This document shows, one piece after another, positions 20,342 to 55,506 of a stretch of 64,000 bases of DNA (within the stretch, counting starts at the first letter, position 1; every line of letters begins with the position of its first letter). The notes under the pieces were generated by a model. That model saw only the letters and a list, made by a program, of their open reading frames with translations, ran no database searches and was not told where the DNA came from. Source of the stretch: a phage; the sequence record NC_094493.1, one strand, 5' to 3'. A program made the position numbers and the translations under genes.

Positions 20342-22320
20342 TTGTAAACAGTAATGAAACTAAAGCAGTGCTAACCGGAAATATGGAGGTCACCAGGGGC
20401 TCAATTTCTCTGAACAAAGAGACTTTTGGGCTAATCATTAAAGGGATTTACGAAGATAAGGTGCTGGCAAGCTGCCGTGAACCAATCTTCAACGCTGTAG
20501 ACTCCCATGTTGAGTCTGGACGGGGTGATGTACCGATCATCATTCACTCTCCTACAGACCTTGAACCATACTTCTTTGTGCAGGACGTTGGATTGGGCAT
20601 GTCAGAAGAGATGGTCCGCAACACGTTCATGAACCTTGGAGAGTCAACCAAGCGCAACAGTAACGCTCTGGTAGGTAATAAAGGTGTTGGTTCAAAGGCT
20701 CCGTTCAGCATGGTGGACACTTTCGATGTTATCAGTGTGCACAATGGTGTTGAAAGCACATATCTATTGTTCTTGGATCAGGGTATCCCAAACGTTACCA
20801 AGATCCGCGAGCGGAAGACTGAAGAGCACAACGGGGTAAAAGTTCAGTTCCATGTTAAGAAAGAGCATGTCCTGAAATATCGCACTGCTATTGCATCGTG
20901 CTTACGCTATGCGAAGTTTCCGTTCATCGTCACCGATCCCATGACCAGTAAGATGTTAGAAGGTGACAAGGTTGAGGCACAGTATCATTACGAGAAGGAT
21001 GGCTGGAAAATGACCATCCTGAAAGGTTATACCAGTTCTGATGAGAGCCGTGTTGTGATGGGTCACCAACCTTACCGCTCCAAGTTCCTGGAGACATTGA
21101 CCGATTACCCTGCAATCTGCGTGGAAATTCCTATTGGGGATTGCAATATTAACCCTGGGCGTGAATGGACCATAGAGGGCCATGACGACGGTGGATTCCA
21201 GGATCGCCTGGAGGCATTTGTCAAAGAAGGTATACGTCTTCGCGGGGCAGAAGTTGTTGCAGAACTGGAGACGGCAAAAACCTCCGCAGAAGCACGTGAA
21301 ATGATGAAGAATAGTGGAGTGTTCGGACACATCTTCGGCAAGAACTTTATGTGGAACCGTTGGGAAGAAACAGGGCTTGGCGACTTAGGCGATTGTGAAA
21401 TTTTCGCTGGCGGCTTAAATAAAGGCCGCATAGGCTATGCTCGTTACGGAAAGTCGGAGTTCTTACGAGGTGTATACCTTGTATTTAACGACGGAGACGG
21501 CAAATATAACCGGAATAAGTGTAACTACTTAAGCGAGATCACCGGACGCAACGTTTTCTATTGCCGGAACACGGATCTGGTGAAAGAGTTTAAAGAGGCG
21601 GCACACCATCCGTTCTTTGCAGATACGGTCAAATTGTTATCGGAGCTTCCACGCCGACCTGCGAAGAAAGGTGAAACCAAAACTCGTTACGAGCCAGGCT
21701 ACTGGGTTAAGAAGCTTAGAGAGGATGGCTACTTCCATCGTGAGCGCCTCACGAAGGCAGAGTTCAAGAAGATTAAGCATTGCATCCCTTATGAGGGGGA
21801 TATCCAACGGGGAAGCTGCTGGCTGGGCCAGATGAGTAACATCTACCAGCAAAATTATGACCGTGTGCGTGCTGCACTCCAGATTCCTGAAGGTGAAGAT
21901 CTGTACCTGGTATCAGAATCTCGTCTGCTTTGGACTGATCCTGATTGCCAGTATGTTACAGAGAAGAATGTGGAACATTTGTTGAAAGAGGATGCTTGGA
22001 AATTCTTACTGACTCGCGCAGCAAATGAAACTTCATATGACAGCCTGTATAGACAATTAGGGAAAATTATCCCCATGCAGGATTTTGGAAATTATCGGCC
22101 ACATTTCCACAAGTGGGAAGGTAACACCGCGTGGAAGCACAGTGAGCTAAATCATCGTGCCAAAATCTTAATCGCCAACCGGGTTAAGTGCGGGAAGGCC
22201 TATATTGCAAGATTGGAAAAGAAATATCCACTTTTGAAGCATGTAGGCTTGAAATATTGGGACACTCCTGCTATGATTGAATACCGTGAACTGATCGATA
22301 CAAAGAATAACATCAAATAA
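20338..22320 (+). CDS. rIIA: rIIA-like GHKL-family ATPase
   Basis: Bergerat-fold motifs in order: N-box EPIFNAVDSH, G1 FVQDVGLGMS, G2 GNKGVGSKAPFSMVDTFDVISVHNG (close to the T4 rIIA segment as I recall it); 660 aa; AAGGAG RBS. Confidence 0.7.
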   Translation: MIVNSNETKAVLTGNMEVTRGSISLNKETFGLIIKGIYEDKVLASCREPIFNAVDSHVESGRGDVPIIIHSPTDLEPYFFVQDVGLGMSEEMVRNTFMNLGESTKRNSNALVGNKGVGSKAPFSMVDTFDVISVHNGVESTYLLFLDQGIPNVTKIRERKTEEHNGVKVQFHVKKEHVLKYRTAIASCLRYAKFPFIVTDPMTSKMLEGDKVEAQYHYEKDGWKMTILKGYTSSDESRVVMGHQPYRSKFLETLTDYPAICVEIPIGDCNINPGREWTIEGHDDGGFQDRLEAFVKEGIRLRGAEVVAELETAKTSAEAREMMKNSGVFGHIFGKNFMWNRWEETGLGDLGDCEIFAGGLNKGRIGYARYGKSEFLRGVYLVFNDGDGKYNRNKCNYLSEITGRNVFYCRNTDLVKEFKEAAHHPFFADTVKLLSELPRRPAKKGETKTRYEPGYWVKKLREDGYFHRERLTKAEFKKIKHCIPYEGDIQRGSCWLGQMSNIYQQNYDRVRAALQIPEGEDLYLVSESRLLWTDPDCQYVTEKNVEHLLKEDAWKFLLTRAANETSYDSLYRQLGKIIPMQDFGNYRPHFHKWEGNTAWKHSELNHRAKILIANRVKCGKAYIARLEKKYPLLKHVGLKYWDTPAMIEYRELIDTKNNIK

Positions 22321-22330
22321 GGAGACCAAG

Positions 22331-23536
22331 ATGATTTTCATCTACGAACATTTCAAAACTCGTAAAGAAGCACGCGACCGCCGTGCAGAACTTGAGAAGA
22401 AGGGTTTCACATGTGCCATTGAGAAAGGTGACACAACCTGGACACTGGCAGTGGGTGCCCCAGAATTGTTCGATCCTGACCGTGACAGCGTCTGCTACAC
22501 CCGTGAGGATTTTGAAACCCGTGAAGAGGCCCGTCTATTTCGATATGGGCTGGAAGATAACGGTAAGTACGCCATGATCTTAGACTTAGGCGAAGGTTCC
22601 GTTAAACGTTGGAGCGTGATATACCCACTGTGTGTTGTTCACGGTGTGGGGTTCACCGGGGTGGCAATCAAGTCAGAAGAACCTTTAGTAGAAGTCAAAG
22701 ACCCGGTGCTGGAGGTGGTGAGCAGTGTGTCTCAGCAACAGACTCGAAGCATCGAGCCTTTAGTAGTTATTTGTGGGGAACTCCTCCAGATCACCTGCAA
22801 CGAAGGCATTTTTGAAATTCGCCGCAGCGAAAGTGAGGAAGTTTACCAGAAAGTCTTCGACCATATCTCTGTTCAGGAATATGATGAGGCAATTGGTGAA
22901 ATCCTTGTCTGGCTGGAACGCAAGAATGAGTTCACCACACTTGCAGACAACCTGATCATGAAAGATGGTAAGCTCTACTACTACGGTGTAGAGATGCGAT
23001 CCACCATTGCAAAGAAAATTGAGAAAGACTATGCAGACGGAACACTGGATGACCGCTATGTGAAATTCCTCGTTCGCCTGCTACGCAATCCTTCTGCAAA
23101 ATCTGTAAACATGCTCTACGATTTTATGCAGGCCAACGATATCCAGATTGCAGAAGATGGTCGAATCATTTGCTACAAAGGGGTTCAGTTTAACGGCAGC
23201 AAGTGGGTGGATTGGCACAGTGGTAAAGTTCCACAATACCAGGGTGCTTTTGTATCCATGCCTCGTAACTTTGTAGAGGATGATCCTGAAGCTGCGTGCT
23301 CCTATGGCTTACACTGCGCCAGCAAGGAGTATGCAAAGAGCTACGGCACTGTAATGACTGTCATGGTTGACCCTGCAGATGTGGTTAGTGTGCCATACCA
23401 ACACAATAGCGCTAAGTGCCGTGCCTGCCGCTATGAGATTGTGGTAGCTCCGGAAGCACGCAAGGACGGAGACCCGATTGAATACGTGGTTGACCGAGAC
23501 GGTAACACTATCGACATTCTTTACGAGGAGGCGTAA
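22331..23536 (+). CDS. hypothetical protein, possible rIIB-like partner
   Basis: 401-aa ORF with AAGGAGA RBS directly downstream of the rIIA-like gene; assignment by synteny only. Confidence 0.45.
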   Translation: MIFIYEHFKTRKEARDRRAELEKKGFTCAIEKGDTTWTLAVGAPELFDPDRDSVCYTREDFETREEARLFRYGLEDNGKYAMILDLGEGSVKRWSVIYPLCVVHGVGFTGVAIKSEEPLVEVKDPVLEVVSSVSQQQTRSIEPLVVICGELLQITCNEGIFEIRRSESEEVYQKVFDHISVQEYDEAIGEILVWLERKNEFTTLADNLIMKDGKLYYYGVEMRSTIAKKIEKDYADGTLDDRYVKFLVRLLRNPSAKSVNMLYDFMQANDIQIAEDGRIICYKGVQFNGSKWVDWHSGKVPQYQGAFVSMPRNFVEDDPEAACSYGLHCASKEYAKSYGTVMTVMVDPADVVSVPYQHNSAKCRACRYEIVVAPEARKDGDPIEYVVDRDGNTIDILYEEA

Positions 23537-27891: not shown

Positions 27892-28656
27892 TTGAAATTT
27901 ATCTATAAAGAACACTACCACAAAGGTGTTGTGTGGAGTCTATTTGACGGATCTGGCGGTGCAGTCATTGACTGGGCAAAAGCTGGATATCTGTGCCTGT
28001 GCTTTAACGCAGAAGGTGCTGACCACGGCAGTTATGCAGAGGTGATCACCGATCATCCAAATATTCACTATGTAGATTATTGGATTGATCCATGGTTCCC
28101 TCAGGAAACTTTCTGCATGTACCCAGCTCCGGACTTTGTTCTTGCATTTCCTCCGTGCACGCATTTAGCGGTATCAGGTGCTGCACATTTTAAGAAAAAG
28201 CTGGCTAAGGATCCTTTGATCCAAATTAATGCTGTAAAGGATGCTCGGGTTGCGGAAGAGCTGGGAGAGATTTACGATTGCCCGTGGCATGTAGAGAATC
28301 CTGTTGGTGTTATGTCCACACTGTGGCGCAAACCTGATTACCGTTTTCATCCTTCTGACTATGGCGGGTATTTACCGGAGGATGATGTAAACCCCTGGTT
28401 TCCTGAATTTATAGCTCCACGTGATGCCTATCCAAAAATAACTTGCGGCTGGATAGGTAATGGATTTATAATCCCGGCCACAAAACCTGTCCAGCAAATA
28501 GTTGACGCGGTTAGCGGGTATTCCATGCAACACGCCAAGCTGGGTGGAAAGAGTGCAAGAACGAAGATGATCCGAAGCCTCACACCACGTGGCTGGGCAA
28601 AAGCCGTATTCTTAGCAAACGAGCCTGTAGTAAGGAGCAGAATTAATGGGAAGTAA
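27892..28656 (+). CDS. DNA (cytosine-5) methyltransferase-like protein with atypical PCT motif
   Basis: Motif I-like LFDGSGG, motif IV-like FPPCTHLAVSGA and motif VI-like VENPVGV in canonical order; start set to TTG 27892 after AGGAGA RBS (ORF-track GTG 27862 lies inside the terminator hairpin); start uncertain. Confidence 0.5.
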   Translation: MKFIYKEHYHKGVVWSLFDGSGGAVIDWAKAGYLCLCFNAEGADHGSYAEVITDHPNIHYVDYWIDPWFPQETFCMYPAPDFVLAFPPCTHLAVSGAAHFKKKLAKDPLIQINAVKDARVAEELGEIYDCPWHVENPVGVMSTLWRKPDYRFHPSDYGGYLPEDDVNPWFPEFIAPRDAYPKITCGWIGNGFIIPATKPVQQIVDAVSGYSMQHAKLGGKSARTKMIRSLTPRGWAKAVFLANEPVVRSRINGK

Positions 28657-30724
28657 ATTTATGGCATCTGCATACAACCGTTTCGGTGAGCCAAACCCGA
28701 AAGCAACTAAGTATAAAAGTGGGGGAAGTGTGAAACGAGACTATCGTGATGAAAAAGAAGTTGAAACTGTAGAGACTGTTTTAGAAAATACTAAAATTGT
28801 CCCTGTCCCACAACAAAATATCGGTCTGATGGCTGCACAATATTTTGGTGTGCGATCAGCATTGTCCCAAGAAGACGGTGTGACAGTCACTGCAACATAT
28901 TTCCCATATTACGACCGCTACGGAAATCTGTCTGGTTTCAAAAAGCGTGACTGGACTATTCCTAAAGAGCAAAGGGGCCATTTCTCCGTTGTTGGCATCG
29001 TAAAGGCCAACTCCCAGATGTTTGGTCAAAAGCTGTGTGCATCTTCCAACAACCGTAAGCAGATTAACGTTTGTGAGGGAGAAGGTGATGTTATTGCAGC
29101 ATGGCAGGCTGCATATCAGATACAAGTAAAAGGGATTCTCACCAACGCTAAAGCCCCGGCAAAGGTGAAGCAGTGGGCTAAAGAGGTCCAGGACGGGATC
29201 GACGCAGTTATCAACGGTGGTGATCTGGCAGGAAAACCCTGCCTGCCTTTTGTTGGAATTAACTGTGGATGTGCAAACGCAGTAGATACTTTTGCAAACA
29301 ATGAGAAGTTTATCCGTAGCTATGGAACAGTTGTGCTGGCAATGGATAACGATGCAGCTAACGAGGTAGAGAAGCAAAAACACGTCATTAAAGGTGTTGA
29401 GGCCACGCACAATATCGCAGCATTTTTGATGGCTGATAACGTTTACCACGTAGAATACCCTGGTGAAGTAAATGACCCTGACGGTGTAAAAGATATCCGA
29501 GACATGCTGAAGGCTAAAAAGCTGGAAGATATTGTCAACATGTTCCGGCACCCTGTTAAATATGTGCCTGATGCTGTGTCGGATTTAGAAGACTTCTCTA
29601 TCGAGTCTTTGCGGAAAAAGACTTCCAACGGGGTAGATATCAGCGCAGAGTTCCCAAAACTGCAAAAAATGCTAAAAGGCTTGCACAAAGGGACACTCGT
29701 AATGCTTACAGGTCCGTCAGGTGGCGGTAAAACAACCATAGCTAAAAAACTGGAACACTGTATTGCAAGATACCTAATGGACCCGACATGTCCGAAGGCC
29801 GATGACTACGAAGAGGATGATCGTCTATGCATGATCCATCTTGAGGAGGATCCAGAGGAAGCAATTAACTCCTTGTATGCAAACCAGTTAGGGTTTGATG
29901 TTAAAGAGTTTGTTGAAGATCCTAGCCAGTTTTTAACTGATCAAGAACACGCAGAGATTCACCAATCATGGGCAAAAGCTGGAAAAATCAAAGTGTTCAA
30001 ACATTTCGGATCTATTCCGGTGGACGAGTTGATTACTAAGCTTAAGCAAATGGTTTGCCTGTACCATTGTCGTTATATTGTGCTTGATCACCTGTCCATG
30101 GTAATTTCAGGGCTTAATGTTAAGGATGAGCGAAAAGAACTGGACATGGCTATGACCCAACTGGCTGCGTTTTGTAAGCAGTTTAACGTGTTTATCTTGG
30201 TGATCGCTCACCTCAAACGTATAGAGATTGTGCCTCCTAAGGACAAGGATGGTAACCCGTTACCTTTCTGGTATCCTGTGCGAAAAGAGAATTTGCGAGG
30301 ATCGGCTGGGCTTGAACAGTTGAGTTGGGTAGTCATAGGTGTCGAGGCCGAAGAAATGGTGGATCGTTCTCGTGGACGTGTCCGTCTGGTAAGTCTTAAA
30401 AACCGTCCAGCAAAAACTTTAGGTATTGCTGACACTTTAGTTATGGACCCTCACACAGGCAAGTTCCATGATGCCAGCAATTGGTACTGGGATAAAGAAA
30501 TGCAGATGTTTACAGACGGAGAAGGTGGGGAGGTTGTTTGGAGACCTCAGGCTATGTTTGAGGATCAGGAGCATACAGTTGTAGAAACACCTATGGGTAA
30601 GGTTGTGGCTGATAAGGTTGTAACTCCTACTGTTAAACCTGTTGACACGCAGGAAGACCTCCAGTACGATGATCCATCCTCTGACCAGGTCCCCGGTTTT
30701 GAGGATGATGAAACGCCTTTTTAA
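28646..30724 (+). CDS. primase-helicase (TOPRIM domain + DnaB-like helicase)
   Basis: TOPRIM-like CEGEGD and AMDNDAAN; helicase Walker A LTGPSGGGKTT and Walker B YIVLDHLS; acidic tail ending DDETPF; AAGGAG RBS; 692 aa. Confidence 0.7.
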   Translation: MGSKFMASAYNRFGEPNPKATKYKSGGSVKRDYRDEKEVETVETVLENTKIVPVPQQNIGLMAAQYFGVRSALSQEDGVTVTATYFPYYDRYGNLSGFKKRDWTIPKEQRGHFSVVGIVKANSQMFGQKLCASSNNRKQINVCEGEGDVIAAWQAAYQIQVKGILTNAKAPAKVKQWAKEVQDGIDAVINGGDLAGKPCLPFVGINCGCANAVDTFANNEKFIRSYGTVVLAMDNDAANEVEKQKHVIKGVEATHNIAAFLMADNVYHVEYPGEVNDPDGVKDIRDMLKAKKLEDIVNMFRHPVKYVPDAVSDLEDFSIESLRKKTSNGVDISAEFPKLQKMLKGLHKGTLVMLTGPSGGGKTTIAKKLEHCIARYLMDPTCPKADDYEEDDRLCMIHLEEDPEEAINSLYANQLGFDVKEFVEDPSQFLTDQEHAEIHQSWAKAGKIKVFKHFGSIPVDELITKLKQMVCLYHCRYIVLDHLSMVISGLNVKDERKELDMAMTQLAAFCKQFNVFILVIAHLKRIEIVPPKDKDGNPLPFWYPVRKENLRGSAGLEQLSWVVIGVEAEEMVDRSRGRVRLVSLKNRPAKTLGIADTLVMDPHTGKFHDASNWYWDKEMQMFTDGEGGEVVWRPQAMFEDQEHTVVETPMGKVVADKVVTPTVKPVDTQEDLQYDDPSSDQVPGFEDDETPF

Positions 30725-30782: not shown

Positions 30783-33206
30783 ATGAGTATGTGGTCTTTC
30801 GATCTGGAGGCCTCCGGGCTTTTGGAAGATCTAGATCTTTATTATCACTGCGGTCTGTTTAAAGAGCTGAATAAGAACCGTTTTATGCTGTTCCTTCCTC
30901 TAAATGACCGCACACACTACTCCGAGGAGGATATAGAGAAGGCTAAGAACTTTATTCTGGCAAAGAAAACTCTTTATAAAGATTTTGAAGTTCGCATAGC
31001 AGATTTTTCGGAGTTGGAAGGTTGGCTTACAGGCAATTCCGACTGGTCACCAACAGCTTTGAACTGCCATAACTGCTACAGTTATGACTTTATGCTGATG
31101 GAAAGATTATCCGGTATTCATTTTGACATGTTCCGTGATCCTAAATGCATGGGTACTATCAACGACCACCAGGTTAACCTGTTTGATACGTTGGCGATGA
31201 GTCGAATCTTGTGGCCTGATCGCCCTTTACCAAAAGGTTGTCCGGACTCTGTATTCAACCCGGTCACTAAGAAAATGCAGCCTGTTGGTCCTCACGGCCT
31301 TATGGCATGGGGCTATGCTCTTGGTAACCAGAAAGTTCAAATTGATGACTGGCGCGATCTTCCGTTGTGGAAGTATGTGGATCGTGTATTTGAGGACGTT
31401 ATCATCCAGGAGCTGCTCTGGAAAGAACTGGTAGCGGAATCAAAAGGTGTATTCTACGGCAAGTCTGACATGCAGAACTTTATGTACGATCCTGCCAAAG
31501 AGAAGCCGAAAGGGTTCAAGAAGATCACCTGGAAGAACGCATTACGCCGAGGCATGCTGCAGCACTTCCTGATGGAGCTGCAGGCCCGTCAGGGTGTGTA
31601 TTTCGACATAGATGGAGCTATTGCTTTACGTGACCGTTGCGATGCGTGGATGAAAGAAATCGCTGATCGTGTTGAACCACAACTGCCTTTAAAAGAGCTG
31701 TCAATGTCTCAGCGGCCCAAGTTCCCTGAAAAGCCGTTTAACCAAGACGGGACAATCTCTAATAATGGTTGGAAATGGTTAAAAGATAAGCTTGGCTATC
31801 CTGTAGACATGAGCGCTCTAGAGTTCAAAGCCCCGCCTAAGAGAGCATTTACCTCCACAGGAGATGTCAGTAAGATGGGGATAAAATGGTGTGAAGAGAT
31901 GGGCTGCAAAGACCCCGATAAGATGGCTGATTTCTTGAGAGGCTATATTAAGGGCACCTCAACACCACAACCTTTACCTAAAGAGCTAATGGATCAGGCA
32001 ATAAGCGATCTGCAGCAGAAGCGAATGCCTGACTGCAAGATACCTATGAAAATCAGCAATCAGGACGACATTAAGCGATACCTGATCAGTGCTGGTTGGC
32101 TTCCGACAATGTGGAGAACTAAGGATGTAACTAAAGACAGCAAGAAGAAAGCTCTACCTGATGCAGATGTTGATGCACGAGTATATGCATACATGGACGA
32201 GCTTTTAGAGTCAGAGTATTGTGACCTAATTATCAACTTCTGGAACAAAACTGATGCTAAGTTTCAGACAACAGTGCACAAGTTCCGAAGCTTTCCTAAC
32301 TCCGAAAGGATTAAAAAGGAAGTATTCGGGAAAATACGTAGAAAAGCTAGGGCACTTATTACTTCTCCGCAACTGAAAGATACGTTTGGACACCTATGTC
32401 CGAATCTTGAAAAATTGAACGGAGAGATGGCTAAGGATATCGTCTTGTGGTTATCCTTGCGAAACCGCAGATCGGTCCTTGATCCAATCAAGGAGGATAA
32501 GGTTGATACTGGTCTTCTTAATCACCCACGCTTGAAGATTGACCATAAGCTTCCTGCTAAAAGCTCCGGATTAACAAACACTTCCAGACAGAAACACAGC
32601 ATTTGTGCAAACATGCCTAAACCCTCTCCTAAAGTGGTTATGGGTAAGGAGATGCGTAGCTTGTGGGGTGTTCCTCCTGGATACTTTGAGATCGGTATTG
32701 ACGGGTCCAACTTAGAGCAGCTTATCGGGGCTTGGGGTGCCTTTGAGTTCGACAACGGCTTGTATTATGATGTTGTAAGTAACGGGGACGCACACCAAAA
32801 CAATGCTGAGGCATATACAAAAGTAGCAGGCAGAGAGGTGTCTCGTAACGACGGTAAACCTATCACGTATGGGGTTATGTACGGGGCACAAAAAGATAAA
32901 GTTGCAGATATGCTGGACATCTCTCCAGAGTTGGGACAAAGGGTAATCGATGCACTCTGGGATGCCAACCCTGGTCTTAAGGGGCGCAAAGAGGATCTGG
33001 AGAAATTCTGGGAAGCAACAGGTAAGAAGTTTATCTACTCTTTTGATGGTCATGCTATCTGGACCCGATCTAAACACTCTTTACTTAATGCATACCAACA
33101 GAATGGTGGTGCATCGCTGTGTGACTTGGTTGGGATACTTATGCACCACCAAATGGTGAAGCGTGGGTGGTACGATGAAGGTGTTCGTCGTATTATTTAT
33201 TACCAT
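30783..33206 (+). CDS. family A (T7-like) DNA polymerase, exon 1
   Basis: 3'-5' exonuclease Exo I FDLEASG; motif A IDGSNLEQL; motif B RNDGKPITYGVMYGAQ; reading frame stops 1 codon after ...IIYYH, exactly where motif C (HDE) should continue. Confidence 0.85.
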
Positions 33207-33482
33207 AAATAACATTGTGGCTTCATAGAGTAATCTATGTCGAATAACCTCTTTAACTGCGGGAAGCCTAAACCTTATGGCAAGGTAATCCGCAACGAAG
33301 CGCTCAAAAGAGCGAACGCTCAGAGGCCATTCCGAAAGGAAGTAGACCAGCAAGTGCGGTCGAAATGGGAGGATTCCTGTGGTTGCTTATCATAGGAATA
33401 TGAGATGGTCCGATCCTACGTGAAAACGTATGGCTATGCACGTAATGGTGCGGGGTAGCTTAACGACCTACCTGAACTATTG
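33207..33482 (+). ncRNA. putative group I self-splicing intron (no ORF) interrupting the DNA polymerase
   Basis: 276 nt between ...YYH and DEYQLQV...; 5' exon ends in U and intervening sequence ends in G; P-like AACTGCGGGAAG (33255), Q-like AATCCGCAACG (33287), R-like GTAGACCAG (33342) and S-like GAGATGGTCC (33402) elements; candidate guide GTGG at 33217. Confidence 0.7.
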
Positions 33483-36646: not shown

Positions 36647-37012
36647 ATGGAACAAATGAACGATCAAGCGTCGGTTGCGATGAACGAGCAAGAACAACCT
36701 CAAGAATTTTTCTTAGGGTTAAGTAAAGATCAAGTGTCTCTTCTGCTAGTGCTTTCTTCTTTCATGGGAAGACTTCAGGAGCTCACACAACAGCCAGAGG
36801 CTGAACAATTATTCCAAGCTTTGCGTGAAGAAGAAAAATATCGTCGTTTGGACTATGCCTTAGGTTGGGTAGCTCAACAACGGGATATGCTGATGGCCCT
36901 CTCTGGGACCACAAGTTTTGCAATGGGCCTGTTGGCTCAAGTTCAGGACAAATTAATTCAAGCAGGGTTCGCACACACGGCAAGCACTAACGAAGAACAA
37001 GGAGACAAATAA
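36647..37012 (+). CDS. hypothetical protein (121 aa)
   Basis: ATG after GGAGA RBS; Q/E-rich helical. Confidence 0.5.
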   Translation: MEQMNDQASVAMNEQEQPQEFFLGLSKDQVSLLLVLSSFMGRLQELTQQPEAEQLFQALREEEKYRRLDYALGWVAQQRDMLMALSGTTSFAMGLLAQVQDKLIQAGFAHTASTNEEQGDK

Positions 37013-38238
37013 TGAGCGTTATTCAACAATTCGCTAACCCAATGAATCCGCGTGAAACTGTTTTACTAGCTCACGGCATGATTAAACGTGTTAGCATCAA
37101 GCCTATTAAAGGTGCTGATCCTACAACAGGTATTAAAACCACTGTGTGGCAAGGTAAGAAAATTGAATCCAGCCACACCATCTCTTTACTGATTTCTGAA
37201 CTGGATTCCTCTGATAACCTGCTTCAAGGTGGTGAAGAAGTCTGGATCAGCATGGGTGATAAGCTGCTTAAACCAGGTCATCAAGACTCTGTCTCTGTTA
37301 AGATTGATGACAAGTGGGAAACCGTAACGCCAGGATGGATCGTAAATATCCCTTTGAAGGCAAACGAGCATAACGGTAAGACCTATTACAAGGGCTCACT
37401 GGCTAAGATGGTTAAGCTGGGTGCAGGAGAGGCTCCAGCAGCGACTCAGCAGCAAAAACAGCAACAAGGTGCACAATCACAAGGCCAGAAGCAGAAACCT
37501 CAGCAGAATGCCAATCAGGACGTTTTACGCATCTATGGTGATGTGACTCAGATTGTTGGCAACGTGGTTACTGTTAATGACCACAAGATTGGCGAAGGTG
37601 CTATGGTTGTAACTGATGAGCAGCTTAAAGACCTGGTGGTAGGTGGTCGTGTTGCAGCCATTGTTGACAAAGACACCGGAAACATTATCAGTGGTTTCAA
37701 GGCCTATCCCCCTAAGGCAGAGAACGGCACTCAAGGATCTGGTGGCAAGCGTAAATCCTCTTACGACCCTATCGGTGTGGAAACGGGGCATAGCATCAAT
37801 GCGTTGCAGATCATCCTGGATCGCGGGTTTAAGGTAGACGACCCACTGGGCGTGGCTAAAACACTGCACGTAGTCACCATTGAGCTTAAGAAAGAGTATG
37901 CTCAAGCCACCAACCGAACTGAAGATGAAGTAGGTGCCAGTGTCGGTAATGCGGTGTTGAACGCTTGTCGCCGTATTGACAAGAAAACGAAAGTTGATGA
38001 TTTTGCAGCGGCAATTACTGCAGAAGCAAAAGATGTCTTGACTAATCTGGCTGAACCGTTGTACGATTGGATCAAGAACGGTGCTGGGTCAACCGACCAT
38101 CAAGAACCTCAGGCTGCCAAACAGGAAGCAGCTCCACAGCAAAACACTGTAGACGCTCCTCCTGTAAATGATGCGGAAGATGACCCAATGGATCAGAATC
38201 CAGCACAGTACGCCTTTGATGATGACATCCCTTTTTAA
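37012..38238 (+). CDS. single-stranded DNA-binding protein-like
   Basis: 408 aa; Q-rich linker then acidic tail ending ...AFDDDIPF, identical to the E. coli SSB C-terminal hexapeptide as I recall it; AAGGAGA RBS; sits with replication genes. Confidence 0.6.
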   Translation: MSVIQQFANPMNPRETVLLAHGMIKRVSIKPIKGADPTTGIKTTVWQGKKIESSHTISLLISELDSSDNLLQGGEEVWISMGDKLLKPGHQDSVSVKIDDKWETVTPGWIVNIPLKANEHNGKTYYKGSLAKMVKLGAGEAPAATQQQKQQQGAQSQGQKQKPQQNANQDVLRIYGDVTQIVGNVVTVNDHKIGEGAMVVTDEQLKDLVVGGRVAAIVDKDTGNIISGFKAYPPKAENGTQGSGGKRKSSYDPIGVETGHSINALQIILDRGFKVDDPLGVAKTLHVVTIELKKEYAQATNRTEDEVGASVGNAVLNACRRIDKKTKVDDFAAAITAEAKDVLTNLAEPLYDWIKNGAGSTDHQEPQAAKQEAAPQQNTVDAPPVNDAEDDPMDQNPAQYAFDDDIPF

Positions 38239-40462: not shown

Positions 40463-40654
40463 ATGGTAATTTTTAACCGGGATGGTATCATAGTTAGACA
40501 GCACCCGTTCCTTGAATACTATCAAATTGAGCAATGGTGCTACGGGGATTGCAGTCACTCCTATGGGCAAAGTTGGGGATATCGTACAGTTTTTGAATCC
40601 ACAGACCTTGACAAAGTAAGACAGAAAGTTTTAGAACTTATTAACAACAAGTGA
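40463..40654 (+). CDS. hypothetical protein (63 aa)
   Basis: ATG after GAGAG; downstream of the consensus promoter. Confidence 0.5.
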   Translation: MVIFNRDGIIVRQHPFLEYYQIEQWCYGDCSHSYGQSWGYRTVFESTDLDKVRQKVLELINNK

Positions 40655-40661
40655 GTATGAT

Positions 40662-40994
40662 ATGGTAACATTAGAAAGACGTAAAGCTATCGCCGCCACA
40701 CTGGCAGACATCTTTTGGGAGTGCAATTTAAAAGATACTAGATATTGTGGCGCATCTGTAGATGCATTGTTCCCACGGCCTACTATTGTTGCAATGGGCA
40801 ACCTGCTCGATGTGGTATATGGAGCATGGGACAAGGAAGGTGGATTCTATATCTGGCAACCTGACTACGGGACTTGGAAAGAGGTTAGTGGTTCTTCGGA
40901 CTTCACTCCTGCAGTGGCTAAAATGGATGGCTGGAAAATCTATGTCGGTAACGACATGGAACTGAAAGGCGAAATTGTTTACTGGTTACCTTAA
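40662..40994 (+). CDS. hypothetical protein (110 aa)
   Basis: Co-oriented ORF. Confidence 0.5.
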   Translation: MVTLERRKAIAATLADIFWECNLKDTRYCGASVDALFPRPTIVAMGNLLDVVYGAWDKEGGFYIWQPDYGTWKEVSGSSDFTPAVAKMDGWKIYVGNDMELKGEIVYWLP

Positions 40995-41015
40995 GAAAGT
41001 CCAGGAGATAAAGTT

Positions 41016-41261
41016 ATGAACAAAGGGTGGACATTTGTAGACGGCGTTAAAAACATGCCTCTAGGAAAGTATATTGTAGCCATGGCAGATGAGAATGGCA
41101 ATGTGGATTTCGGAGCTTGCGAGGTTGTTCTTGCAGGATCTGGTAACTATGTGGACAAAACCGGGATAATTAACGGTCAGTTCTACTTTGATCACAACCC
41201 TGTTGTAGCGTATATGGCTATGCCAGAGTTCAAGTTCCCAAAGGAGGGTGCAGATGTTTAA
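41016..41261 (+). CDS. hypothetical protein (81 aa)
   Basis: ATG after CAGGAGA RBS. Confidence 0.55.
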   Translation: MNKGWTFVDGVKNMPLGKYIVAMADENGNVDFGACEVVLAGSGNYVDKTGIINGQFYFDHNPVVAYMAMPEFKFPKEGADV

Positions 41262-41451
41262 GCTTAAATCTGCATGGAACATCGCTGTGGGGGACGAGAT
41301 CCGTATCCCAGGTGGAAAGACCATTATGAAGATATCTCGTATCGAGTACGAAGGTGATCGTGTATTTCATATCTTTGCAGAGGATGGTCGAGAAATTTAT
41401 ATACAGGCAGGCTCTCACATCTATATTCGTAAGAAAGGGGACGACAAATGA
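41248..41451 (+). CDS. hypothetical protein (67 aa)
   Basis: Overlaps upstream gene end; GGAGGG upstream. Confidence 0.45.
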   Translation: MQMFKLKSAWNIAVGDEIRIPGGKTIMKISRIEYEGDRVFHIFAEDGREIYIQAGSHIYIRKKGDDK

Positions 41452-41777
41452 CAGAGATCATCATTTCAACTGCAGGGTATGTGTTCCTGACAATCATTGC
41501 ACTGACCATTCTGGTGGTGGTATATGGAATTGTTATTCTCCCTATTCTTGAGACAATTAGTTTGTGTCGGTGTTGGAGAAAGGCTTACGGTCCACAGCCG
41601 TGGAAGGACTGGCCCCACCTGGTGCACATAGCGTTCTCTTATGCTTATGATCACGCCAGCAGTGCATGCATAACCGGGTATCACGCCCACAACTGGAGCT
41701 GGGAAGGGTTGAGGAAATGGAATGTTACAAAGACCATACCTCTGCGCATGTACAAACCTAAAAACAAAGACAGCTGA
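41448..41777 (+). CDS. hypothetical membrane protein
   Basis: 4-nt overlap with upstream gene; N-terminal hydrophobic helix IISTAGYVFLTIIALTILVVVYGIVILPIL. Confidence 0.5.
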   Translation: MTEIIISTAGYVFLTIIALTILVVVYGIVILPILETISLCRCWRKAYGPQPWKDWPHLVHIAFSYAYDHASSACITGYHAHNWSWEGLRKWNVTKTIPLRMYKPKNKDS

Positions 41778-42088
41778 TACTTGAAAATTCCTGGCATATC
41801 AAGTATAAGGGGGATTTCTAAAATGGATTTCCTCCTTTTGATATTTCACCGGGCCGGATATTTTAAAATTCTTAGAAAATCAGAAAATGGATCGAAAACT
41901 AAAATGGATTTTTCAGAGTAGGCGCGACAAGCTGAATAACTCATCCTATCGTTTGCACCATATTCCAGGCCACCATTATAGATTTCCCACACATGCTAAC
42001 CTCCCTCTACTAGAACTTCCTCCACTTACCCTTGACCTTCTATGGTAACAATCTAACCACTATCTTGAAGTTGCGGTGCAGCTTTCCA

Positions 42089-42270
42089 GGTACTCGATCT
42101 ACTTTTCATTTCAGGGCTTGGATTTTCTGAAAATTTTTCTCGATAAATTTCTCAGTACTCGATCTGTTTTTCGTTTTCTGAATCGGATTTTCTGGAAATC
42201 GTTCCGGCTCTCGACCTGAAATTTTTGGGGACGAAATCGATTTTTCGTTTTCAGAAATGGATTTTTAAAA
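42089..42270. repeat. iteron-like imperfect tandem repeats in a 1-kb non-coding gap
   Basis: GTACTCGATCT at 42089 and 42155; GGATTTTCTG(A/G)AAAT at 42118 and 42185; TTTTCGTTTTC at 42160 and 42243; AAATGGATTT four times between 41821 and 42266; unit about 66 nt. Confidence 0.5.
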
Positions 42271-42412
42271 TTTCTATATGGGAATATTTTAGTGGATACT
42301 ATTTTATAGGAAATTGTTACGGAGGGTAATTAGCGTGCTAATTAAATTTATTAAATGCGAGGAGTTCTCATTTAGAATTTTGAATGATAATCATTCTCGT
42401 TTGCAGAATAAC

Positions 42413-42436
42413 GGGCAGGCCCGGTGATTGTCTCCC
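42413..42436. repeat. 24-nt motif GGGCAGGCCCGGTGATTGTCTCCC (copy A)
   Basis: Direct variant CCGGTGGTTGTCTCCC at 42556; inverted 23/24 copy at 51506..51529. Confidence 0.5.
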
Positions 42437-42796
42437 GGCCCCTACTGCCCCGGCTTGTTATTATAGTAACACACAGGACAAAGAAAGCAAGAAGTTTTTG
42501 CATAAATTTTTAGACGATAATGATAATCGTTCTCATTTCATGCAGCGCCCATCCCCGGTGGTTGTCTCCCCCGTCACCGGTGCCTGCCGTCCTTTCGATA
42601 GGTATATTTTGCCACCTGGCGGGGCCGCTGTCAACACTTTTCAAAAAAAAAAAATTCTAACCTGATGCGCTGACCGCTGCAACCTGGCGGGGCCAGCCTG
42701 GCAGGGCCTAACTGACCAGGTAGGAGAGAATGAAGGCTTGCAAACCTGGTGGGCCTATGCTATAGGATAGGTAACAATTGAAGAGGAGGTACAAAA

Positions 42797-42973
42797 ATGG
42801 AAGGTAATATGATCCCCCTGGAAAATGTAGCTATTAATGACGCTGAGGCTATCGCCCTGGTTGAAAAGGCTATGGCGGGAGCGTTGGAACATAAAGAAGA
42901 GTACGAAAAAATGATGGTTAACCTGGCAGGGGCGGCGGCTGGAGAATTCTACCCAAAAAATAATTTTAACTAA
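42797..42973 (+). CDS. hypothetical small protein (58 aa)
   Basis: ATG after GAGGAGG RBS; absent from the ORF track (under 60 aa). Confidence 0.5.
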   Translation: MEGNMIPLENVAINDAEAIALVEKAMAGALEHKEEYEKMMVNLAGAAAGEFYPKNNFN

Positions 42974-42976
42974 TGG

Positions 42977-43005
42977 TTGACAGCTCGGACAGTTCTTGTT
43001 ATTCT
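42977..43005 (+). promoter_or_regulatory. sigma70-type early promoter
   Basis: TTGACA, 17-nt spacer, TATTCT. Confidence 0.5.
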
Positions 43006-43058
43006 TATCCTCGCAAGGTGAACAACACCACACCAATTAACAGAGAGGATAAAAAATC

Positions 43059-43256
43059 ATGAACGCCTACGGAATTAAAGTACGTCGCAACACTCGCCAG
43101 GTGGTCACCAATCAAGTGATTTGCCGGGTGGATGTAACCATCAACAACGGGCAAGGCCTTTATAAATTTCGTCGCGGTCATAGCTATACCCTGCAACAGC
43201 TTAACCGTTGCGCCCTGACAAAAGGTCAGATCAACCACTGGTTTAATAAAAAATAA
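43059..43256 (+). CDS. hypothetical basic protein (65 aa)
   Basis: ATG after AGAGAGGA RBS; K/R-rich. Confidence 0.55.
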   Translation: MNAYGIKVRRNTRQVVTNQVICRVDVTINNGQGLYKFRRGHSYTLQQLNRCALTKGQINHWFNKK

Positions 43257-43258
43257 TG

Positions 43259-43287
43259 TTGACATATGGTCTGACACAAAATACACT
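43259..43287 (+). promoter_or_regulatory. sigma70-type early promoter
   Basis: TTGACA, 17-nt spacer, TACACT. Confidence 0.55.
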
Positions 43288-43319
43288 GAAATCGCAAAAG
43301 ACACTAAGAGGATAAAATC

Positions 43320-43718
43320 ATGAAAACCACTACCTTTAATTTTGATAATGCGGACTTTTCTTTTTCTGATGTCAAGAACTGCCGCCGTGATCGTGGATTT
43401 TACAAGTCTTATAATCTGGTGGGCCTGGACGATGACAATAATTTGCACGAAGTAGCTGAGATCCGGTATTATGCCGCCGCCAGTGGTAACACTCACTACT
43501 GCGTGTTTTGGATTCACGACAACAAGAACAATAAGTACGGTTATACTGGCGGCAAGGCGAGCGGTCACGGTTACGATAAAGCTAACGCAGCACTTGAGAG
43601 TGCATTAAATGCTATGGAGATCACTGCCGACGGCTGGATCTACGAAGAAGAGTTTTTGTCGGCACTTGCTGACCACCTGGGCTATAAAAAGCACATTGTG
43701 ACATGCGCCCACGAATAA
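43320..43718 (+). CDS. hypothetical protein (132 aa)
   Basis: ATG after AAGAGGA RBS. Confidence 0.6.
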   Translation: MKTTTFNFDNADFSFSDVKNCRRDRGFYKSYNLVGLDDDNNLHEVAEIRYYAAASGNTHYCVFWIHDNKNNKYGYTGGKASGHGYDKANAALESALNAMEITADGWIYEEEFLSALADHLGYKKHIVTCAHE

Positions 43719-43724
43719 AAATCA

Positions 43725-43752
43725 TTGACACGCTGCAAAATTTAAGTAAACT
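43725..43752 (+). promoter_or_regulatory. sigma70-type early promoter with 5'-UTR hairpin
   Basis: TTGACA, 16-nt spacer, TAAACT; then GGCGGGAAtgttTCCCGCC hairpin and AAAGGA RBS. Confidence 0.55.
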
Positions 43753-43800
43753 AGACACAAAAGGCGGGAATGTTTCCCGCCAGCACAAAGGAAAAAGATC

Positions 43801-44205
43801 ATGAATAAGAACGTACGCCGCATCATGAACGAACTGGCAAACGATGAAAAAATTATTGACATGCACTTAGTGAACATTTGCCGCCGTTGTGTAACCTATA
43901 ACAACCGCGCCGCAAAAGCGCGTGAGATGAACGCAAAAGGCACCTTAAAGCCCTTCCAGGTGGTGGTAAAGGCCATTAAAGATGTAGCTAATACGGCAAA
44001 CCAGGTACAGGGGAACACCAACGAGAGTACCAATATTGATCCGGCTTACATCATGAAACGGATCCGGACCTGCAAGAACAAAGAGCAAGTGTATAACGTC
44101 ATAGACTGGTTGGATTCCATGGGCGACGTGGTTTATAATAGGTTTTCTGCAGCCATTGAGATCCAGCTAGACAGGTTGGACGGGAAAGTACTAAAAACTT
44201 ATTGA
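43801..44205 (+). CDS. hypothetical protein (134 aa)
   Basis: ATG after AAAGGAAAAAG. Confidence 0.6.
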   Translation: MNKNVRRIMNELANDEKIIDMHLVNICRRCVTYNNRAAKAREMNAKGTLKPFQVVVKAIKDVANTANQVQGNTNESTNIDPAYIMKRIRTCKNKEQVYNVIDWLDSMGDVVYNRFSAAIEIQLDRLDGKVLKTY

Positions 44206-51425: not shown

Positions 51426-51441
51426 TATTTATAAACTACAA

Positions 51442-51469
51442 AACAGGGCTTGCAATGGTCCTGTTTTTT
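51442..51469 (+). terminator. intrinsic terminator
   Basis: ACAGGgcttgcaatggtCCTGT followed by TTTTTTG. Confidence 0.7.
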
Positions 51470-51505
51470 GTTATACTTATTCCACGGCAGGCACCTGGCG
51501 ACGGG

Positions 51506-51529
51506 GGGAGACAATCACCGGGCCTGCCT
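51506..51529. repeat. inverted copy of the 42413 motif (copy B)
   Basis: GGGAGACAATCACCGGGCCTGCCT is the reverse complement (23/24) of 42413..42436; preceded by CACCTGGCGACGGGG, which resembles the CCTGGCGGGGCC motif. Confidence 0.5.
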
Positions 51530-51553
51530 GTCATATAAGAACTATAAAAACCG

Positions 51554-51582
51554 TTGACATCTGCCATGGGGTGGGGTAACAT
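51554..51582 (+). promoter_or_regulatory. sigma70-type early promoter with 5'-UTR hairpin
   Basis: TTGACA, 17-nt spacer, TAACAT; then GGGGCaagacgtttGCCCC hairpin. Confidence 0.55.
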
Positions 51583-51640
51583 TTATCTTGAAGGGGCAAG
51601 ACGTTTGCCCCACACAACAACCAGAAGAGAGGAAAACATC

Positions 51641-52802: not shown

Positions 52803-52821
52803 TTTTTTAACTGAATTATCA

Positions 52822-52846
52822 AGGGGCTTAGGCCCCTTTCTTTTTG
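52822..52846 (+). terminator. intrinsic terminator closing the plus-strand early block
   Basis: AGGGGCttagGCCCCT followed by TTCTTTTTG. Confidence 0.7.
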
Positions 52847-53565
52847 TCTGCTCTTCCCCCTACCATAAACGGCCCTACCTGGCAAGTGGAATAATTGACG
52901 AGCCATCAATCCCACACACTGTACAAATATACATGTAAAATAGCTATTGCATAACCTTTCATTGTGTGGTAGCAGGGCTATTTTTACCCGTTTTCCCTTC
53001 CAAAATTGCACGTAATGCCGCTATTGCACAAATTTTAACCTGATGCACATCTCCAATATCTTGTCAACAACTAAAAATCTTTATAAGTCATACACTTACA
53101 CAACATAGAAAGCGTGTCCTACGCGAAAAATCGAGTATAACTATAGCCGCCAGATCTCAGAATTCACGTACGCACGCCATTCTATAGCCTGCAAAGTATT
53201 TATTCCAACCACAGAATAACGGAATAGTCAATACCTGCATAAAATAATTATTCGTGTAAACTGCATAACATAAATCAGCTCAGGTGTCAACATTTTTCGT
53301 AAACAGTCCGAAATTATCACGATGAGTTATCATAAACAGAGAAATCTTTAGTCGTCTAATGTTTACTGTACATTACTATACTGACTGGAATCATTAGATG
53401 ACTAAGAGAAAGATAAGAAATAATTAATAATGTGATTATTTTACCTGTAACAATAAGGCAACTATGCAAACGAATGGCATGGCGCGACGGAGTCGCGACA
53501 TAATATAAAAGCAGTAACCATCACCCCCGTGATAGTTTGTCTGCAATCTATTAATCAGATCATAG

Positions 53566-53616
53566 TTGCCTTGTATTTAGTTAATCATGACATAACAAGC
53601 AAGGCAACTATAGATC
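53566..53616. repeat. long palindrome in the non-coding convergent zone
   Basis: CATAGTTGCCTTG...CAAGGCAACTATAG inverted repeat (13-bp arms, about 26-nt loop); AAGGCAACTATG also at 53455 and TAGTTGCCCTG at 53624. Confidence 0.5.
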
Positions 53617-55290
53617 TTCTAATAGTTGCCCTGCTTTTATATTATGTCATAGAAACACCCGAAGGGGTGACCAAAGGTCACCTGGCATAGCCAGCGAAAG
53701 ATTATTAACTTGCTAATCGTTATCATGCAAACGAATGGCATGGCTTATAATTTTTGAGCAAATAGTCTATACGTGAACAGTGAGGCATGCAATAGTAACA
53801 ATTGTTATTATATCCAGTGTTTAGTTTGCCCAGTGTGTCACTATTATGTCATATTATGTCACAGTATGTCAGACAAGTTTTTCTCCTCTTTGTCAAGTGC
53901 TGCATGAAAAATTTACAAGCTGGTATGGTAGCATTTTTGCGGTCCTGTTTACATTCAGTAATGTATGTATAATCCTTGTTGTGTGGGCGTTTAGACGTCT
54001 AGACGGTTGGAAGTCCACAGGTCAATATCTAATCTATCGGCTGCTAACTATATCCCACACAAATAGTAAGAAATATGATTGTTATATGCGTAAACAGTAA
54101 CTCATGTTATCAATCCCTGTATGTATCGCCAGTGGTGCGCATAATGGGTATTATGTTAAATTGCCCGTAATGATAATGGTTCTCACAATGATATGTATTC
54201 TCATTCCCCCACACAAAATAGATTGCAAATGTTGTGCCACTATGTGAACGGCCTCACCTATTAATTTGCCTCACTGCCTCGATATTTGAGAATTGTTATA
54301 AGAATGAGAATGATTCCCATTTCGTCCGCCTGGCAGCACTCCTGTAGGACAAGCACAAAATCGTGGCATAGCTGGACCTGTTCAGATATTTCTGGCTGGC
54401 TCTTCAGGTCTGTGTGGGAAAAGCCAACCCCCTCCGGCGGCGGGGAGGGTGTCAATTAAAAAATTTATGGGGTATATGAAGCGCTCTTCAGGTAAGGCAT
54501 GTACTATGGGATGAAACCCTCTTCAGGCAATGATATTTGTGGGTGTGATATTTGCTGGAAAGCCAGATATGACGGGACTCCCGGCGGGGCAGGGGTAGTA
54601 CAGACAGGGAAAATATGGGGATGTAGTTGGGTGAATTGATCGGGCAGGTAGAGTACGGAATATGTTACAAGTATGTTAAATATGGAGGGTGAATATCTGC
54701 AGGATTTGTGTGTAAAATCAAAGACTTAAGTAGTGTTGTGGTATTTTCTATAAATAATTCAAGTTTAATAGGTAATATTTGTCTCTATCCACTTTGTGTG
54801 GTAAACAAATTCAAATGAGATTGGTTTACAAGTGTATACATAATATGCAAATTAAAGATACAAGAAACCCCCCTCCCCCTTCGGCTACCATTCACCTTTT
54901 CCTCTGACTGGTACTTAAACACTTATTCAGACTCTTCAGGTTATCACCCATACACCATATGGCAGTGACTGGTGTCCTCCGGCCCCTCTTTCGTCACCCG
55001 TCCGCTTCGCCATGCTAATGCCATAGCCAAATGTTCGGTTGTTCACCCTGTTCACTCAGGTGTATCTCCATACCCCTTCAAACCGAAGAGAACAGAAAAC
55101 CCGAATTACTCGGTAAAAGAAAAGAGAAGAACTTAATTTTATCAGGATAGGCAAGAATGTCAAGGCATGACTGCTCACTAAACAAGCAAACAGTCATGTG
55201 TGGGAGGTAAGTGATTGTGGTGGTAGGAAATTTAGTTGAAAGATGTGTTATAGGTGCTTCCAGCACTTTAGCCTGGCAGCTAATTGTGTG

Positions 55291-55506
55291 TCAGTCCAGC
55301 GGTTCATCCTCTACTTCACTGAAATCAATGTTCATGGTCTCTTCCCAACCATCGATCTCAGCACAAGAGTGGAGTTCTTTAGGGTTTACTCCCAAAGCCT
55401 CAGCAACAGAGTCTATATTTAACACCTCTGGCAGGTATGATTCATCGAATTCAAGGTAAATCAGGCCACGAGTGTTGTCAACTCCACCAAATATTTCTAT
55501 CTTCAT
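55291..55506 (-). CDS. hypothetical acidic protein
   Basis: ATG at 55506 preceded by AGGAGA; begins MKIEIFGG, the MK[IV][KE][IL] N-terminus seen in several genes of this block; ORF-track start 55572 trimmed. Confidence 0.55.
   Translation of the reverse strand: MKIEIFGGVDNTRGLIYLEFDESYLPEVLNIDSVAEALGVNPKELHSCAEIDGWEETMNIDFSEVEDEPLD

Follow-up and report, generated by a model that had tools for sequence, protein, structure and literature searches.

The non-coding gap at positions 41778-42796 of a 64,000-nucleotide stretch of phage DNA (NC_094493.1; the whole stretch is referred to here as the window) is best supported as a control region of the phage chromosome that is essential and acts in cis. 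The window derives from an rV5-like Vequintavirus, and the gap, ~1 kb in length, lies between two plus-strand genes. More specifically, the gap is a candidate replication origin of the transcription-activated iteron type, possibly gated by the host protein Fur, and we place the probability of this assignment at about 0.45. Full-text literature searches returned neither a description of the element nor a mapped origin for the rV5-like phage group, and in the rV5 genome paper the origin could not be located by skew.

Evidence for a requirement comes from a preprint describing HIDEN-SEQ, in which Himar1 transposon insertions were mapped in the sister phage Bas54 (10.1101/2025.11.20.689424). On the basis of locus tags and coordinates, Bas54 corresponds to MaxBurger (MZ501093.1). 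Alignment of its sequence with the window gave 93.6% identity, and the numbers of TA sites tabulated in the preprint were reproduced from the sequence. Within the gap, bas54_0101 (window positions 42225-42329) received no insertions at its 11 TA sites and was scored "Essential", and bas54_0102 (42384-42660) was hit at 5 of 15 sites with ~13 mean reads, as opposed to ~200 nearby, and was scored "Strong fitness defect". One of the three TA sites in bas54_0100 (42073-42219) was hit, and this locus was not classified. The 12 upstream genes (bas54_0088-0099) and the seven downstream genes (bas54_0103-0109) were hit at 73-100% of their TA sites and are mostly non-essential, the exceptions being bas54_0095 ("Reduced fitness") and bas54_0103 ("Intermediate") (10.1101/2025.11.20.689424). 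Inasmuch as the downstream genes tolerate insertions, polarity is not the explanation, and the requirement sits in the gap itself. The third repeat unit of the gap, together with the AT-rich stretch next to it, is read as the core of the required element.

That the gap is non-coding, as had been claimed in the initial annotation, was confirmed by sequence comparison. Annotators have placed anywhere from zero to three open reading frames (ORFs) in it, and these differ between records, decay in relatives, and were not found in other genera. It might be argued that the equivalents of bas54_0101 and bas54_0102 encode essential micro-proteins, given that these ORFs are annotated in the BASEL genomes, were scored as required or nearly so in the screen, and, in the case of the ORF at 42384-42665, are open in all of the Vequintavirus sequences examined. 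This is highly improbable. Every substitution in the ORF at 42384-42665 is non-synonymous, and the reading frame of its C-terminal end shifts with the length of an A-tract. The ORF at 42225-42329 starts with TTG and lacks an obvious ribosome-binding site; three relatives carry it in truncated form, and most relatives have lost the start codon of the ORF at 42076-42219. Other annotators call different ORFs or none, and none of the gap ORFs is present in the other genera compared, whereas the DNA features are. Since the ORFs are not credible, the intolerance of insertions is read as that of a cis-acting DNA or RNA element. The sole ORF in the gap that is possibly coding is one of 32 amino acid residues at 41823-41921 (MDFLLLIFHRAGYFKILRKSENGSKTKMDFSE), with GGGGG, resembling a ribosome-binding site, 9 nt upstream. 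Most Vequintavirus sequences retain the first 29 codons of this ORF, and its C-terminus is variable. Because it overlaps the conserved left block described below, coding constraint and DNA constraint are inseparable there. The window contains no homologue of the small minus-strand ORFs that relatives have in their gaps. A search of Rfam 15 gave no match at E ≤ 1 in 40500-44000, nor in the corresponding gaps of four relatives, contig L005 having one weak match elsewhere; no match to a transfer RNA or transfer-messenger RNA was found.

The features of the gap are listed in Table 1. Conservation within the genus was assessed by footprinting across nine Vequintavirus sequences, namely the window and eight relatives. 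As can be seen, the gap is a mosaic of constrained and unconstrained blocks, and conservation in the block at 42380-42640 exceeds that of the coding DNA on either side.

Table 1 Features of the gap at 41778-42796 and of a related element elsewhere in the window
Feature	Position	Strand	Details
Left conserved block	41815-41916	no strand	mean identity of 94% between 8 Vequintavirus relatives and the window
Unconstrained C-rich spacer	41917-42079	no strand	72% mean identity; 43% invariant columns; GC skew -0.32
Three imperfect iteron-like units	42080-42275 (~42080-42144, 42145-42218, 42219-42275)	+	82% invariant columns
AT-rich, DNA-unwinding-element-like stretch	42256-42355		24% GC; palindrome TAATTAGCGTGCTAATTA at 42328-42345
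AT-rich DNA block	42276-42379		79% invariant columns (nine Vequintavirus sequences)
Fur-box-like operators: degenerate upstream box AAATGCGAGGAGTTCTCATTT and Fur box 1 TTGAATGATAATCATTCTCGTTTGC	42352-42404		15/19 and, in 6-nt phase, 14/19 matches to GATAATGATAATCATTATC
Predicted promoter TTGAAT-18-CAGAAT, overlapped by Fur box 1	42380-42409	+	predicted start ~42416
Block of Fur boxes, c1, c2 and promoters	42380-42640		94% invariant columns
c1	42413-42450	-	minus-strand RNA would read GGGGCAGUAGGGGCCGGGAGACAAUCACCGGGCCUGCCC; G-rich
Predicted promoter P2, TTGCTT-19-TATAAT	42460-42490	-	predicted start ~42454, towards the AT-rich stretch; read from sequence
Fur box 2, GATAATGATAATCGTTCTC at 42516-42534	42510-42540		17/19 matches to consensus; best in 64 kb
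c2, paralogue of c1 and c3	42545-42590	-	
Predicted promoter P1, TTGACA-17-CAAAAT	42606-42634	-	10/12 matches; TG before the -10 hexamer
Block of A12 and GC-rich motifs	42641-42796		49% invariant columns
A12 (T12 on the minus strand)	42643-42654	-	~-45 to -56 of P1
CCTGG(C/T)(G/A)GGGCC repeats and weak candidate early promoter TTGCAA-17-TATAGG (42737-42765)	42683-42765	+	
c3, third c paralogue, outside the gap	51484-51528	+	89.7% identity over 39 nt to c2; 23/23 to c1

The initial annotation had described imperfect repeats of about 66 nt. A repeat search recovers a 47-nt core three times, spaced by 65 and 74 nt and with 70-74% identity; Tandem Repeats Finder reports just a 12-nt period. The motifs that had been listed are all present at their places, including GTACTCGATCT at 42090 and 42155, GGATTTTCTG(A/G)AAAT at 42120 and 42185, and TTTTCGTTTTC, which is present twice. 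A correction concerns AAATGGATTT, which occurs exactly three times (at 41821, 41902, and 42255) rather than four, and these are its sole exact copies in the 64 kb. Each unit opens with a core, (G)GTACTCGATC in the window (GCTCTCGACC in unit 3), continues with T-rich TTTTC(T/G)... sub-repeats, GGATTTTCTGRAAAT, and an A(n)T(n) tract, and ends with GAAAAAATTTTT. The left block contains two exact copies of CTAAAATGGATTT, the A/T palindrome GATATTTTAAAATTC, and two minus-strand copies of SATTTTCTRR, a motif of the repeat units. Four of the five occurrences of this motif in the window fall within the gap, and the two in the left block are inverted.

Directly adjoining unit 3 is the AT-rich stretch. 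Calculations with nearest-neighbour energies indicate that 42260-42319 is the least stable 60-bp duplex in the whole window and that 42256-42355 has the second-lowest stability among its 100-bp stretches. It had been suggested that the repeats lie beside an AT-rich tract, and indeed they do. The A12 tract is not that partner, however, because it is located ~370 nt away and its length varies from 6 to 12 A between strains.

On the plus strand every unit contains an A/T-rich hairpin followed by a T-run, and one of these in the window (42221-42258) and one in the contig L018 were scored as terminator-like. The three units might accordingly be tandem intrinsic terminators that insulate the early promoters from the long upstream operon, the remainder of the gap being ordinary promoter DNA. 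We regard this as improbable. The stems are weak and A/T-rich, most of the units were not scored as terminators, and conservation spans the whole 62-67-nt unit including the GTWCTCGATC core. Furthermore, an insulator between non-essential genes should tolerate insertions.

The triple repeat, the Fur boxes, and the convergent promoters are found together at the syntenic gap in at least five other lineages (Seuna-, Mydo-, Certre-, and Henunavirus, and the contig L018). The triple repeat itself was located in Seunavirus (GAP31, 4MG, and PVP-SE1), Mydovirus (Mydo), Henunavirus (Hena1), and L018, a 121-kb contig from IMG/VR. In these relatives the units are 62-67 nt long and are spaced by 74-76 and then 67-69 nt. 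Certrevirus CB7 contains six cores, 20-32 nt apart. The core varies by lineage (GTTCTCGATCG, with GACTTGAG in Hena1; the units of other lineages start with GGTTCTCGATCG) and the layout is constant, a pattern that would suit a site evolving in concert with the protein that binds it. Within the gap, conservation of the DNA itself in distant genera (72-88% identity) is confined to Fur box 1 and the next ~40 nt.

The repeated sequence GATAATC(A/G)TTCTC(G/A)TTT, noted previously, is present at 42386 and 42522, and its copies are now read as Fur-box-like operators, the two best matches to the Fur consensus in 64 kb. The boxes at 42516 and 42380 are each accompanied by a second match in a 6-nt phase; at three or fewer mismatches, 0.02 matches to the consensus would be expected by chance. 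Relatives have one to four Fur-like boxes in the same place. A 16-mer of Fur box 1, ATAATCATTCTCGTTT, is identical in the promoter region of E. coli K-12 fhuA, a Fur-regulated gene. In a manner similar to the Fur-repressed promoters of Enterobacteria such as that of fhuA, the phage boxes show 15-17 matches out of 19 and hexamer phasing, and the 19-bp box 1 overlaps the -35 to -10 region of a promoter-like site, TTGAAT-18-CAGAAT. Both hexamers of this site are kept across genera, and in L018 it was scored as TTGAAT-18-TAGAAT. The second copy, at Fur box 2, has a poor plus-strand -10 hexamer. Unlike the host promoters, the phage boxes reside in the non-coding DNA of a virulent phage, beside repeats, and no iron-related gene lies downstream. 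Full-text searches yielded no report of Fur boxes in virulent-phage non-coding DNA at such a site. A captured host promoter was also considered: blastn of 42340-42480 against 5,426 E. coli genomes returned no match, and this stretch is thus not a captured host promoter at detectable identity.

Fur may bind the phage boxes, and a virulent phage might in this way wire Fur, the iron sensor of its host, into an essential cis-acting element. In such an arrangement, conserved across the Vequintavirinae and their relatives, which are phages of broad host range employed in therapy cocktails, boxes placed between the convergent promoters and the iteron/unwinding module would make the firing of an origin, or an essential RNA switch, iron-dependent, and we consider it rather unlikely. 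It is also possible that the boxes, once amplified, titrate Fur during infection. Two divergent copies of a Fur-like box followed by GAATAGCAGGCAGG..GGTGT are present in L015, a 347-kb IMG/VR contig from an unrelated jumbo phage that has no repeats there, and this unit may be a portable iron-responsive promoter module.

Facing the plus-strand promoter are the two predicted minus-strand promoters P1 and P2, both of which point left into the AT-rich stretch. The predicted starts at ~42416 on the plus strand and ~42454 on the minus strand face one another, such that their transcripts would overlap by ~40 nt. The repeats of the CCGGTG(A/G)TTGTCTCCC type, recorded at 42421 and 42555, are indeed there; rather than standing alone they belong to a duplicated promoter-plus-leader unit, Fur box 2 and c2 being a ~135-nt tandem duplicate of Fur box 1 and c1. 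The GC-rich spacer of P1 is one copy of CCTGGCGGGGCC in reverse, and the position of the A12 tract fits that of an UP element for P1. Orthologous minus-strand promoters in relatives read TTGACA/TTGCAA-17-TATACT/TATAAT for the P1 type and, in GAP31, TTGATC-16-TATTAT for P2, and Seunavirus has a third minus-strand promoter directly beside the repeats.

In the orientation that reads GGGAGACAAUCACC, c1, c2, and the distant c3 each follow a sigma-70 promoter, that of c3 being TTGCAA-16-TATACT. The sequence CCGGTGATTGTCTCC likewise has its third copy there, on the other strand at 51506-51522. Within the gap, the 5' arm of c2 and the 3' arm of c1 are complementary, and the minus-strand fold has a z of -3.5 versus -1.9 for the plus strand. 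RNAalifold, however, revealed no conserved fold for the c element on either strand, and the idea that c1 and c2 are structured small RNA genes was therefore dropped. In relatives c2 is replaced by a segment of ~90 nt, here called RNA-A (L004 2640-2750, L005 2650-2760, L007 2660-2770, and L018 1930-2040), which is preceded by a strong minus-strand promoter and matches nothing in Rfam. In its consensus fold (-18 kcal/mol), one G-U pair is invariant and one G-C/A-U pair is compensatory, and both are compatible with the minus strand only. RNA-A is a candidate for a new family of phage non-coding RNA, and because its pairs work only on the minus strand, that strand is very probably transcribed in the relatives.

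The region surrounding c3 at 51436-51600, between two early genes, has the order TTGCAA-16-TATACT, c3, and a second promoter, TTGACA-17-TAACAT. A terminator hairpin is positioned 5' of c3 with the -35 hexamer TTGCAA in its loop. In Bas54 the locus overlapping the c3 equivalent, bas54_0130, tolerated insertions at 4 of 8 TA sites (10.1101/2025.11.20.689424).

These promoters and leaders allow for a reading in which the gap is a hub of transcriptional or RNA control and not an origin. A Fur-repressed plus-strand RNA of ~100-230 nt would converge with the minus-strand leaders c1 and c2, as for example an iron-responsive small RNA with its antisense partner, and the repeats would be operators at which a phage regulator controls the early-to-middle switch; a need for the RNAs or for the switch would then account for the essentiality of the region. 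In keeping with this, the Fur boxes overlap a conserved promoter-like site, a terminator-like hairpin is found ~210-250 nt downstream on the plus strand in relatives, the minus-strand RNA of relatives is structured, and c3 sits between two ordinary early genes. The divergent units of L015, free of repeats, also resemble a portable promoter-leader module. On the other hand, the version of the gap in the window has no clear terminator, the second copy of the unit is compromised on the plus strand by its -10 hexamer, and the c elements lack both a conserved structure and an Rfam match. The intolerance of insertions is greatest in the repeats and the AT-rich DNA, not in the promoters or c elements. 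We view this control hub as possible though on the unlikely side.

The replication origin that we favor could operate in the following manner. A phage protein would bind the three ~70-bp units through the GTWCTCGATC core, along with the inverted motif copies in the left block, and its binding would load stress on the adjoining 24%-GC stretch at 42256-42355, leading to melting. The tandem sigma-70 promoters P1 (42634-42606, with its T12 UP-like tract) and P2 (42490-42460), on an otherwise silent minus strand, would fire the G-rich leaders c2 and c1 towards the AT-rich stretch. The leader RNAs might promote opening, or they might persist as an RNA primer or R-loop, in the way known for the T7 primary origin and T4 oriF/oriG. 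Host Fur, if bound at its boxes, which separate these promoters from the AT-rich stretch, would repress the plus-strand promoter facing them and could block leftward transcription, and its occupancy would thereby tie firing to iron status.

Parts of this scheme have precedents. As in the iteron-type origins (lambda ori, P1 oriR, RK2 oriV, and RSF1010 oriV), the gap has several direct repeats beside an AT-rich melting stretch, sites for host factors alongside the repeats, and a core that is lineage-specific within a constant layout. It differs in that its units are 62-67 nt long and 65-76 nt apart, rather than 17-22 bp and in helical phase (short spacing is seen only in CB7), and in that no cognate initiator gene was found beside it and Fur-like boxes are present instead of DnaA or IHF sites. 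The T7 primary origin consists of the tandem promoters 1.1A and 1.1B followed by AT-rich DNA, and T4 oriF and oriG each combine a promoter with a downstream unwinding element and an R-loop primer. In the gap, likewise, two predicted tandem promoters on a gene-free strand are directed into an AT-rich stretch 100-200 nt downstream, and the leaders are G-rich. Here the predicted promoters belong to the host sigma-70 class, there are repeats and operator-like boxes in addition, and the region is not dispensable, whereas the T7 and T4 origins individually are. Finally, the predicted face-to-face promoters ~40 nt apart, with complementary RNAs just upstream of a candidate unwinding site, are reminiscent of RNA I and RNA II, the antisense-RNA control of ColE1 replication. 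In contrast to ColE1, no conserved stem-loops were found in the c elements of the gap, and its transcripts are predicted. The departures from known origins are thus the unit length, Fur boxes in place of DnaA and IHF sites, and the convergent promoters.

The proposal of an origin, first made in the initial annotation, fits the array beside melting DNA, the conservation across genera, and the difficulty of disrupting the region in a sister phage. Several observations weigh against it. No initiator-like match to Pfam or PHROGs was found among the neighbouring ORFs, and the window contains no homologue of a 274-residue protein encoded next to the gap in relatives. In 41780-42790 there is no DnaA box at one or fewer mismatches and no IHF consensus, nor is GATC enriched in the gap. 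The GC skew does not switch at the gap and merely tracks the direction of transcription. The units are spaced far more widely than the 17-22 bp of classical iterons, the repeat region taken as single-stranded DNA folds no better than its shuffles (z = -1.35), and the c elements, as described above, have no conserved fold. Single origins of T4 and T7 are dispensable, and for this reason essentiality is not a signature of an origin. The missing insertions could also reflect DNA covered by protein rather than lethality. Lastly, the origin could lie instead in a second non-coding region at 52803-55300. As for the partition-type site that had been offered along with the origin, it finds no support: the phage is lytic, as its relative phiTE, which has been described as strictly lytic, and no par genes were encountered among the ORFs scanned against Pfam and PHROGs.

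The second region, 2.5 kb in length, occurs where the plus- and minus-strand gene blocks converge. It is AT-rich, with two of the three least stable 100-bp stretches of the window, and it contains ATAGTTGCCYTG in both orientations at 53448-53650, three copies of CTCTTCAGG, and Fur-box-like sites at 54166-54205 and 54300-54322. Judged by coordinates, it corresponds to the Bas54 intergenic region without transposon insertions. It remains a rival seat for the origin and is probably a packaging or terminus region. In the Mydovirus KPP-1, a 514-bp terminal repeat was reported at 116316-116829 (PMC9862379). This repeat falls in the KPP-1 counterpart of the convergent region, at a distance of 8 kb from where KPP-1 has its version of the gap, and packaging signals are therefore more likely in 52803-55300.

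That the gap itself is the pac site for the terminase of a headful-packaging phage has, by comparison, only a slender chance of being correct. As an essential, cis-acting, repeat-bearing piece of non-coding DNA it has the attributes of such a site, and two public assemblies break inside it. Vequintavirus, phiTE, and bov phage genomes are reported to be circularly permuted, from which headful packaging follows for phiTE and the bov phages as relatives. The number of breaks, two in 121 records, is however at the chance level (~1 expected), and the gap is distant from the terminase genes. Judged from KPP-1 and from the reported circular permutation, it probably does not coincide with genome ends, the KPP-1 terminal repeat being in the counterpart of the region that is insertion-free in Bas54.

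The rV5-like phages are among the coliphages of broadest host range and are used in biocontrol and therapy. With the present analysis, two "essential hypothetical proteins" of a genome-wide screen become a defined non-coding element with individually mutable parts. Should the gap prove to be an origin, it would provide a handle for engineering, marker-frequency studies, and phage-dependent vectors, and if the Fur boxes are functional, a lytic phage would here, as is rarely seen, be sensing the iron status of its host in a core function.

With respect to the gene neighbourhood, the DNA 5' of the gap encodes rIIA/rIIB-like proteins, a PIF1 helicase, two DNA methylases, a DnaB-type helicase (28646-30724), and a family-A polymerase (30783-33212). 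The view that the gap divides a replication module from an early block is only loosely right, because ~8.5 kb of small genes with sigma-70 promoters intervene between the end of the polymerase gene at 33212 and the gap. The rIIA/rIIB-like pair, within the so-called replication module, is formed by adjoining ORFs at 20338-23536, one with a GHKL-ATPase domain (660 residues) and the other with an RIIB-like match (401 residues). The 408-residue protein encoded at 37012-38238 has no Pfam family and belongs to phrog_4477. The C-terminus of the family, DFDDDIPF, is an acidic tip typical of bacterial single-strand DNA-binding proteins, and the protein is probably the phage counterpart. Its Bas54 orthologue, bas54_0087, was scored essential (10.1101/2025.11.20.689424).

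The right-hand end of the gap is the least constrained of the blocks downstream of the repeats. The GC-rich motif CCTGGCGGGGCC is found at 42615 and 42683, with a one-mismatch copy at 42697, and at two or fewer mismatches there are 11 matches versus 1.95 expected. The GC-rich repeats noted at the outset are thus real and enriched, but part of their cluster is deleted in several relatives: in FV3, SYGMH1, ECP26, and S127, ~52-62 nt (~42693-42768, with varying breakpoints) are lost between copies of CCTGGNGGGCC, and the deletion removes the -35 hexamer of the candidate early promoter. That part of 42683-42765 is accordingly dispensable, and the GC-rich repeats seem to serve as recombination substrates.

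Across this region the window is 99.7% identical to rV5-like phages, and 121 records in the phage collection match it. Included are 16 records of the MG0656xx series that are named "Campylobacter phage" (host Campylobacter jejuni). These are 96-99.7% identical here to the rV5-like phages of E. coli, and their host label appears doubtful.

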